A stretch of DNA of 28,400 bases from a virus, in UHGV virus genome UHGV-0126577. One strand, written 5' to 3'. Position 1 is the stretch's first letter, and every line of letters begins with the position of its first letter. The position numbers were made by a program, and so were the translations under genes. The notes under the pieces are model-generated. The model had not been told where the DNA came from. It saw nothing but the letters and a program-made list of their open reading frames with translations, and made no database searches. Below are positions 24,134-24,930 of this stretch, one piece after another.

Positions 24134-24930
24134 GCTTCAGGGCTGTTCCAGTGCGGAACGTTGTTATCAGGTAATGTTGATTGCTTCTGTCTGCTAATCT
24201 GCAGCCGCCTTGCCAGCTTCTGCTCCCACTGTGCCTGATGGTATGCCTTACCCTCAGCCATCCAGTAAATTCTGAACTCTGCAAGTTCCTGTGCCGTTGG
24301 CAGACTGTCCAGGTAGATCCCCTGCAATGAGCTTTTCCGAAGAAAGTCATCTGATGGCTGCCATTGTTCATGCATGACAAATTTGCCTAATTGCCCTGGC
24401 CCACCAGGAGGAACAAAGTTATTCATCACGGCGTTGTTTGCGCCGGGGTCATGAGGAACAGAATCCCCGGTTTTTGTCCTGCTCTCCCTCTCTTGGTTAA
24501 ATGACTGGTTATATGACTGGTTCTGGATCCCGTTTTTGGGATCATTCAACATCCCGTTTTTGGGATCATTCAACATCCCGTTTTTGGGTATATTCCCGTT
24601 TTCGGTAACATTACCGTTTTCGGGTTCATTGCCCCCCTCCCGGTTGCCTTTAATGTTCCCGTTTTTGGTTATATTAAGAGAGAAAACCCGCACTCTTTTT
24701 GTCGCTCCCTTTCTCTCTCCGGTATCTGAAATAAGCCCCATTTTCATGAGCGATATAAGCCCGGCCTGCACGGTTTTTTTATTCAGGCAAGTGTCTTTAA
24801 CGAGGCGTTCTATGCTGGGGTAGCAGAGGTTATATTCATCGGCTCTGTCAGCCATCGAGAGCAGTATGAGCTTTAATGATGAGCTACCTGGATCTGTCTC
24901 CCAGGCCCAATCTGTTGCATGTCTGCTCAT
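24115..24930 (-). CDS. Replication initiator O-like protein with embedded origin iterons (271 aa)
   Basis: N-terminal winged-helix-like region. The central repeats in the protein (KNGMLNDP x2) coincide with DNA iterons. SD GGAG upstream. Lies directly upstream of the P-like gene, as in lambda O-P. Confidence 0.75.
   Translation of the reverse strand: MSRHATDWAWETDPGSSSLKLILLSMADRADEYNLCYPSIERLVKDTCLNKKTVQAGLISLMKMGLISDTGERKGATKRVRVFSLNITKNGNIKGNREGGNEPENGNVTENGNIPKNGMLNDPKNGMLNDPKNGIQNQSYNQSFNQERESRTKTGDSVPHDPGANNAVMNNFVPPGGPGQLGKFVMHEQWQPSDDFLRKSSLQGIYLDSLPTAQELAEFRIYWMAEGKAYHQAQWEQKLARRLQISRQKQSTLPDNNVPHWNSPEAWEDFL
24501..24675. repeat. Iteron array (candidate replication origin) inside the O-like gene
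   Basis: 24-bp unit ATCCCGTTTTTGGGATCATTCAAC in perfect tandem at 24527-24550 and 24551-24574. Degenerate copies with core CCCGTTTT(T/C)GG follow at about 24575, 24595, 24613 and 24657. ATGACTGGTT is repeated at 24501-24522. Confidence 0.7.

Follow-up and report, generated by a model that had tools for sequence, protein, structure and literature searches.

A probable replication origin of iterons and phased pentamers within the HTH_36-type initiator gene of a phiV10-like phage

The virus genome UHGV-0126577, of which a stretch of 28,400 nucleotides was analysed (the window), carries on its minus strand a gene of 271 amino acids (24115..24930) for a replication initiator, in which an HTH_36 N-terminal domain and a DnaT-like C-terminal domain are separated by a linker encoded by the putative origin of the phage. 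The DNA for this linker contains six direct repeats, and we consider it likely that these are iterons, that is, binding sites for the N-terminal winged helix of the gene's own product, and that together with the phased GAACC/AACC repeats and the purine-rich tract that follow them they form the vegetative replication origin. Initiator binding and origin firing are both predicted here from sequence comparison. An earlier note on this DNA had likened the repeats to the origin that lies within gene O of phage lambda. Very probably the element is indeed an intragenic iteron origin of the lambda style, in an initiator that is not an O protein; the layout is a known one, and no record or paper that we found describes such an element for this group of phages.

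Results

Six iterons lie between the two domains of the initiator

Tandem Repeats Finder identified a 24-bp unit, ATCCCGTTTTTGGGATCATTCAAC, present in 2.6 perfect copies at 24527-24588, which bears out the two perfect tandem 24-bp units described in the earlier note, and an overlapping array with a period of 18 bp at 24576-24630. A repeat search placed six copies in register, with starts at 24527, 24551, 24575, 24593, 24611 and 24656 and start-to-start spacings of 24, 24, 18, 18 and 45. The core CCGTTTTYGG has six matches in the window, every one of them within 24530-24668, against a chance expectation of 0.13, and six copies were reached in none of 100 shuffles. The shared core reported for the repeats is confirmed, with six copies in all, and the longer core given at that time, CCCGTTTTYGG, is present in five of the six (the copy at 24613 reads ACCGTTTTCGG). 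A search with the 16-mer ATCCCGTTTTTGGGAT, in which up to three mismatches were allowed, gave no match in the window outside the array.

All of the iterons are listed here as minus-strand features and numbered in the sense of the gene. Iteron 1 (24656..24671, core 24659-24668; plus strand TTCCCGTTTTTGGTTA) encodes TKNG, iteron 2 (24611..24626, core 24614-24623; plus strand TTACCGTTTTCGGGTT) encodes PENG and iteron 3 (24593..24608, core 24596-24605; plus strand TTCCCGTTTTCGGTAA) encodes TENG. These are followed by iteron 4 (24575..24590, core 24578-24587; plus strand ATCCCGTTTTTGGGTA) and by iteron 5 (24551..24566, core 24554-24563), which lies within a perfect 24-bp unit and is a perfect dyad, ATCCC-GTTTTT-GGGAT. 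The last, iteron 6 (24527..24542, core 24530-24539), has the sense sequence GATCCCAAAAACGGGATC, which can be written GATCCC-AAAAAC-GGGATC and has inverted arms of 6 bp. The strong copies in general are dyads with the arms ATCCC-N6-GGGAT. Iterons 1 and 2 are set apart by a G-rich spacer that is not itself an iteron (24631..24641, minus strand; sense GGGAGGGGGGC).

The array occupies nucleotides 260-405 of the gene, corresponding to amino acids 87-135, and so falls between the HTH_36 and DnaT-like domains. As the earlier note had stated, the repeats are inside coding sequence and are mirrored in the protein, the translation of open reading frame (ORF) 24115-24930 containing the peptide repeat PKNGMLNDPKNGMLNDPKNG.

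The repeats are conserved as DNA rather than as peptide

The six copies of the window share a single reading frame, in which they encode xKNG or xENG. This counts against selection on the DNA, and it means that the window alone cannot separate selection at the DNA level from selection at the peptide level, so that the argument has to rest on relatives. The observation would suit an explanation in which the repeats serve the protein, as an Asn/Gly/Lys-rich flexible linker (PKNGMLND) that arose by replication slippage and is either selected as peptide or neutral, the DNA repeats being a by-product; changes of copy number in whole-codon steps, of 24 or 18 bp, would suit it equally. However, in the window cores it is the third codon positions that are fixed (C, A, C, G/T), whereas the differences are first-position, non-synonymous changes that exchange K for E and P for T. 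The dyad symmetry of the copies would also be needless for a peptide repeat.

A tblastn search with the N-terminal domain returned 124 phage records, from which 11 diverse loci were taken for comparison. All 11 have between three and seven direct repeats at gene nucleotides ~265-470, immediately after the N-terminal domain, and relatives whose N-terminal domains are 43-58% identical have in common with the window a sense core CC-RNNNNY-GG with an A/T-rich centre. In several of these phages the same DNA core appears in two or three frames within one gene and encodes unrelated peptides. Successive copies in EBPR podovirus 1 are in frames 1,2,0,0,1,0 and encode TKNG, SQKR, PKTE, PISD, PENG and PKSG; the corresponding frames are 0,2,1,0 in Bcep176, 0,2,1,1,1,1,1 in Vibrio phage Her and 2,1,1,1,1 in GF-2.

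A scan restricted to one genome per species added 69 loci from Gamma-, Beta- and Alphaproteobacteria, of which the 65 full-length ones were used for motif counts. The motif CC-R-N4-Y-GG occurred at 12.2 per kb in the 330 nucleotides after the N-terminal domain and at 0.47 per kb-strand in the flanks, a 26-fold difference, and at least three copies were present at the same position in 60 of these 65 initiator genes from different species. The copies spanned at least two reading frames in 56 of the 60 genes, with all three frames used in 19, and their spacings showed no preference for multiples of three (71/196 were divisible by 3). A position matrix built from 253 instances gave the dyad arms GTYCC/GGRAC on either side of an A-rich centre. 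Taken as a comparison of sequences, these results point to selection of the repeats as DNA, independently of the reading frame.

Iteron cores are nearly invariant among close alleles

For polymorphism, and for that purpose only, we used a set of 80 near-identical viral contigs (E. coli phages), which yielded 47 distinct alleles of the same length. Across these 47 alleles the cores varied at only one of their 60 positions and the remainder of the array at 13 of its 90 (Fisher p = 0.009), and third positions varied at 0/18 sites in the cores against 46/243 elsewhere (p = 0.05). The hot spot of polymorphism coincided with the G-rich spacer at 24631-24641, and the cores that adjoin it were invariant.

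The number of cores is itself variable, ranging from 5 to 9 among close relatives (near-identical E. coli prophages). Initiators of 271, 279, 283, 287, 291, 292 and 311 amino acids are found in E. coli, mostly in 8-amino-acid steps, and the 279-amino-acid form, which has one 24-bp unit more than the window, was the commonest among the 120 matches listed. The variable copy number and the 8-amino-acid steps in length therefore indicate that the encoded peptide is a tolerant linker.

A phased pentamer module follows the last iteron

Directly after iteron 6 in the sense of the gene there is a second repeated element (24491..24526, minus strand; sense GAACCagtcatatAACCagtcatttAACC), which is a candidate for the unwinding or strand-engagement element of the origin. 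Its sense sequence, cca-GAACC-agtcata-tAACC-agtcatt-tAACC-aagag, has a period of 12 and contains GAACC followed by two copies of AACC, and Tandem Repeats Finder reported it as a 12-bp tandem repeat, TGGTTAWATGAC, in 2.4 copies at 24494-24522. The offset from the last iteron core to the start of the first pentamer is 6 nt. The corresponding segment of phiV10 has one 12-bp unit more than the window. The range given for the origin in the earlier note, 24501-24675, takes in most of this 12-bp repeat, which is not mentioned there. We also observed a 7-bp inverted repeat, CTCTCTT (24488-24494) and AAGAGAG (24676-24682), that brackets the array and the pentamer module together and may be due to chance.

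In relatives, pentamers of the form GAAYC were found on the coding strand right after the last iteron at a frequency of 49 per kb (background 2.0), and at least three copies were present in 44 of 59 non-redundant arrays. Their spacing was 10-13 nt, about one helical turn, in 94 of 102 cases, and in 53 of the 59 arrays the first pentamer lay exactly 6 nt past the core. As with the iterons, the reading frame shifts between copies. The window conforms to this group in having at least three CC-RNNNNY-GG cores at gene nucleotides ~260-460 and GAAYC pentamers 6 nt further on.

The association was also recovered without reference to the initiator, in an unbiased scan of viral contigs with the fixed-gap pattern GAACC-N6-GAACC-N6-GAACC, which gave 123 sites. 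An HTH_36-type N-terminal domain was encoded upstream on the same strand for 43 of these, the site lying 86-722 nt downstream of the domain (86-290 nt in 36 of them), whereas none of the 123 sites had such a domain in any of three control orientations. All 43 linked arrays had at least three repeats just upstream. The possibility that the pentamers are half-iterons was rejected because GAAYC is unchanged where the iterons are completely different: the module is kept beside unrelated iterons in Min27, Pseudomonas phi2 and Aeromonas 51.

By nearest-neighbour calculation, only one 30-mer of the gene is less stable than that on the module (nt 413, -34.9 compared to a mean of -40.3), which lies in a segment with an A+T content of ~57-63%. 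In GF-2 and Bcep176 it was the post-iteron segment that had the lowest stability, and in lambda the lowest value within O was that of the AT-rich tract (-30.3). Adjoining the module is a purine-rich tract (24470..24495, minus strand; sense CAAGAGAGGGAGAGCAGGACAAAAAC), which by analogy may hold the place of the purine-rich AT tract of lambda. We therefore read the pentamer module as the part of the origin that would be unwound, or at which a strand would be engaged.

Iterons and N-terminal domain are inherited together

The two halves of the initiator were found in different combinations in other phages. Phage ZX5 (locus 2282-3112) has the same DnaT-like C-terminal domain with another N-terminal domain, and is without these iterons. 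Conversely, Edwardsiella phage GF-2 (locus 2001-2843) combines this N-terminal domain and iterons of the sequence GATCCCAAAATTGGGAT with a lambda-O-like C-terminus, followed by P, and in the Acinetobacter phages AB1, AP22 and Ab105-2 the N-terminal domain and iterons are attached to other C-termini, with a gene for a DnaB-type helicase adjacent. Where the N-terminal domain is only 29-32% identical, as in Min27, Pseudomonas phi2 and Aeromonas 51, different repeats are found in the same place. These initiators are mosaics with a point of exchange at or near the origin, and the fact that N-terminal domain and array move and change together is what initiator-binding sites should do.

The earlier note had also proposed that the iteron sequence defines the replication specificity of this phage, which on these comparisons looks overstated. 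The core CC-RAAAAY-GG is common to relatives with N-terminal domains that are only 40-60% identical, and it is mainly the arms and the centre that differ. Since the core is shared across such wide divergence of the protein, specificity through the iteron sequence is plausible for the arms and centre only.

The initiator is of the HTH_36 type and not a member of the O family

The HTH_36 (PF13730) winged helix was detected at amino acids 18-67 (40.9 bits, cut-off 25) with the wing extending to about amino acid 87 (window 24670-24930), and the DnaT-like domain (PF17948) at amino acids 184-252 (57.5 bits, cut-off 25; window 24175-24381). In PHROGs the protein matched phrog_1032, 'replication initiation protein' (1e-108), and its N-terminal half also matched several families labelled 'replication initiation O-like'. 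In Pfam, however, HTH_36 and DnaT were the only matches: there was none to Phage_rep_O (PF04492), which does match lambda O (6e-36) and P22 gp18 (7e-38), and none to the Rep families of iteron plasmids (Rep_3 / RepA-type). A profile search against PDB gave weak generic winged-helix matches alone (E ~0.005).

Comparison by hhalign of a profile built from 12 N-terminal-domain sequences with lambda O was not significant (probability 0.7%), and comparison of the same profile with P22 gp18 gave a weak match over the winged helix (probability 34%, E = 4e-4). On these values the assignment of the initiator to the lambda O family was rejected, and its relation to O appears to be one of analogy, or remote at best. 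The comparison with the lambda ori-in-O arrangement holds for the layout, for the P-family gene that comes next and for the conservation of the DNA motif across 60 species, but 'O-like' applies by analogy only, the protein being HTH_36 plus DnaT and not Phage_rep_O. With its HTH_36 domain, DnaT-like C-terminus and adjacent P-like gene it belongs among the phage relatives of DopC.

Many database entries for this initiator are truncated gene calls, for example a cluster of 119-amino-acid proteins with 48 members, and several of these entries stop in or near the segment encoded by the repeats. Our guess is that the tandem repeats break assemblies or gene calls.

Gene neighbourhood and identity of the phage

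The initiator stop codon is overlapped by a gene for a helicase loader of the lambda P family (23333..24133, minus strand), whose product matched PF06992 with 191 bits (cut-off 26, E = 1.5e-56) and phrog_109, 'P-like helicase loader'. Just upstream of the initiator is a 91-amino-acid ORF (24933-25208, minus strand) that contains the Cys/His-rich motif CKHGHDSERWVYNGHCVEC and belongs to phrog_1081 (function unknown). This ORF occupies the position of lambda cII; phiV10 annotates a shorter, 66-amino-acid version. Further upstream is a cro-like ORF (25296-25526, minus strand; phrog_35, repressor-type protein), and between these two ORFs there is a terminator-like hairpin (25255..25274, minus strand), at a place equivalent to that of a terminator annotated in the phiV10 record. 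Upstream of the cro-like ORF, a site that matches the promoter consensus, TTGTTA-17-TATTAT (25552..25580, minus strand), is a candidate early promoter from which the transcript would cross the origin. A divergent gene for a helix-turn-helix repressor is also present on this side of the initiator. The genes thus follow one another as in lambda (repressor, cro-like, small ORF, initiator, P), and the minus-strand cluster is a lambda-like early right operon.

The region is 98.3% identical to Escherichia phage phiV10 (Uetakevirus) and relatives, and the remainder of the window is DNA of the phiV10/TL-2011b type; the phage is of the phiV10/epsilon15 type (Uetakevirus). Prophages with this replication region are carried by ~10% of the complete E. 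coli genomes (539 out of 5426). Elsewhere in the window, positions 405-472 of the plus strand match the Rfam family for sar RNA, the antisense RNA of P22 immI (45.2 bits, gathering score 43), which suggests that this phage of the phiV10/TL-2011b type has an ant/immI region like that of P22, and a phage-encoded tRNA-Arg (anticodon TCT; 16910-16986, plus strand) lies amid phage DNA.

Discussion

A model for initiation

From the arrangement described above we infer a scheme of binding, unwinding, DnaB loading and a role for transcription. Early transcripts started at the candidate promoter ahead of the cro-like gene would yield the initiator and the P-like protein. Dimers of the initiator would then bind the dyad iterons, GATCCC-AAAAAC-GGGATC, to form a nucleoprotein complex resembling the O-some, and the strain would pass to the segment of low stability just downstream of the last iteron and lead to its opening. 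The C-terminal domain of the initiator would bring the P-like loader with host DnaB to the opened DNA and, being DnaT-like, may also hold single-stranded DNA.

For the GAAYC module we offer, only tentatively, the suggestion that it is an undescribed second module of the origin, made up of three or four pentamers and common to this class of phage initiators, and that it provides a defined site for helix opening and for engagement of one strand, through a conserved part of the initiator or a host factor. It might then be the phage counterpart of DnaA-trios or of the 13-mers bound by plasmid Rep proteins.

Several observations, in addition to the single frame of the six window copies, weigh against the assignment of the element as an origin. 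We found in the literature no experiment on any member of the HTH_36-type initiator family, and as the N-terminal domain could not be shown to be homologous to lambda O, the mechanism is transferred from lambda by analogy. There is no strongly AT-rich tract, the GC content around the array being 0.35-0.45, and the dip in stability is ~5 kcal per 30-mer compared to ~10 in lambda. In addition, slippage or homogenisation by gene conversion could also keep the cores of close alleles uniform.

Other explanations for the repeats

The alternative that survives best is that the repeats bind the initiator mainly for purposes of control, such as autoregulation, titration or handcuffing, or the exclusion of related phages, and that replication starts elsewhere; we regard this as improbable. 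Plasmid iterons serve both in initiation and in copy control, and such a dual role favours this explanation, as does the lack of a strongly AT-rich tract adjoining the array. However, no other copy of the motif was found in the 28.4-kb window, the promoter region included (about 11 kb of the ~39-kb genome lies outside the window), and the presence of a conserved module at the stability minimum, with a fixed offset of 6 nt, is as expected of an origin. Furthermore, the layout of the window is that of the annotated origins of lambda and P22, which are at homologous positions, and this supports the origin reading.

It is distinctly less probable that the repeats serve a different factor or process, whether a host protein, Dam and SeqA acting through GATC, a hot spot of recombination or phase variation, or a transcription signal on the antisense strand. 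The polymorphic copy number could be taken to favour this idea, and there are three GATC (Dam) sites within 42 bp (24526-24567). These sites are present because the iteron arms read GATCCC/GGGATC. GATC arms are also seen in Edwardsiella phage GF-2, but the relatives from non-enteric hosts have GTCCC or GTACC arms; GATC is outside the family-wide consensus, and no enrichment of GATC was found across the whole window. Control by Dam and SeqA through the iteron sites is possible. Against a site for another factor, the sequence of the repeats tracks the type of N-terminal domain and not the host. The terminator scan flagged plus-strand hairpins formed from neighbouring iterons, but such hairpins are a trivial outcome of the dyad symmetry, and shuffled sequence is expected to give just as many terminator-like sites; the plus-strand 'terminators' at 24537-24580 and a plus-strand ORF at 24536-24823 were accordingly taken as by-products of the dyads. 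The peptide-repeat explanation, the least probable of the three by a small step, was rejected on the frames, the spacings, the fixed third positions and the variable length of the linker.

Significance

As an element of phage biology an iteron origin is ordinary, and what is added here is the family-wide iteron core and the conserved module of phased pentamers, the latter of which may be new. The plan of lambda, in which the origin lies in the initiator gene, would extend to a large family of HTH_36-type initiators that have a CC-N6-GG core in common and occur in Gamma-, Beta- and Alphaproteobacteria. If functional, the phased GAAYC module would give a handle on how such origins open. In practical terms, the element could be used for the annotation of origins in prophages, for the choice of fragments for phage-derived replicons, for predicting whether prophages that share a host are incompatible or show cross-talk in replication, and perhaps for explaining why the initiator gene is so frequently truncated in databases.

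Comparison with known systems

Among the closest known systems is phiV10 itself, in which gene PhiV10p43, like its counterparts in other Uetakevirus records, is the same gene with the same iterons (98-99% identity). In these records the product is called 'replication initiation protein' (as in the phiV10 RefSeq record), 'primosomal protein' or 'DnaT-like', and no rep_origin or repeat is annotated at the corresponding position. The present analysis locates a probable replication origin for phages of the phiV10/epsilon15 type. In the freely searchable literature we found no description of the iterons or origin of phiV10, epsilon15, HTH_36 initiators or Eru-type Stx phages.

For the lambda-type origins, those of lambda and of the Stx phages 933W and P27 (PMC7466680), the resemblance is one of overall plan. 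As in the window, the origin sits centrally in the initiator gene, with the DNA-binding N-terminal domain encoded on one side of it and the C-terminal domain on the other, and consists of four to six direct repeats with internal dyads and an A-rich centre (lambda TCCCTCAAAACGAGGGA, window GATCCCAAAAACGGGATC), in which extra iterons add amino acids to the initiator. The four iterons of lambda lie at nucleotides 349-433 of the O gene, in different frames, and are followed by an AT-rich, purine-rich tract, with P downstream. In both lambda and the window a purine-rich segment is on the promoter-distal side (easily melted in lambda, with only a modest stability minimum in the window), the P-family helicase loader is the next gene, and the unit is downstream of a cro-like gene. 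The differences are that the lambda initiator belongs to Phage_rep_O and that of the window is HTH_36 with a DnaT-like C-terminal domain, that the iteron arms in the window are 3 bp closer together, and that the window is without the 40-bp strongly AT-rich tract of lambda and has instead the phased GAAYC pentamers, which lambda lacks.

P22 likewise has its origin inside the initiator gene (rep_origin annotated in gene 18), and its post-iteron sequence, GAATCAGTCA, is close to that of the window, GAACCAGTCAT. However, gp18 is a Phage_rep_O protein, the iterons are of the type TCGGTAAAAC, only a single pentamer follows the last iteron where the window has a phased array, and the partner is a DnaB-type helicase (gene 12) and not a P-type loader. 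We also observed that P22 (locus 1841-1985) and lambda (locus 1035-1200) share a post-iteron motif, ACACAAAAGACA(A/C)TAT..ACAAAAGA, and that in lambda, GF-2, Bcep176 and many further relatives the last iteron has GGGACAC behind it. The right arms of these origins may thus share an ancestor, although their initiator families differ.

The same protein architecture, HTH_36 plus a DnaT-like C-terminus followed by a lambda-P-like protein, is found in DopC/DopE of the Cellvibrionales and Oceanospirillales, which are chromosomal and, according to Brezellec et al. (2017, PMC5509034), go back to phage genes that became domesticated. DopC was reported to be without iteron-like sequences and without origin activity (PMC5509034), which we count in favour of the origin reading, and the window gene can be regarded as the phage form of this architecture, with its iterons kept.

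Finally, the iteron plasmids (RK2 TrfA, F RepE, R6K pi and pPS10 RepA) also use winged-helix initiators on arrays of direct repeats beside an unwinding element. Their iterons differ in being intergenic, usually 17-22 bp long and without pronounced dyad symmetry, and it is monomers that bind them. Some plasmid Rep proteins are reported to bind one strand of the repeated motifs in the unwinding element as well (PMC4081077, PMC10602881), and the GAAYC array might work by single-strand binding of this kind.

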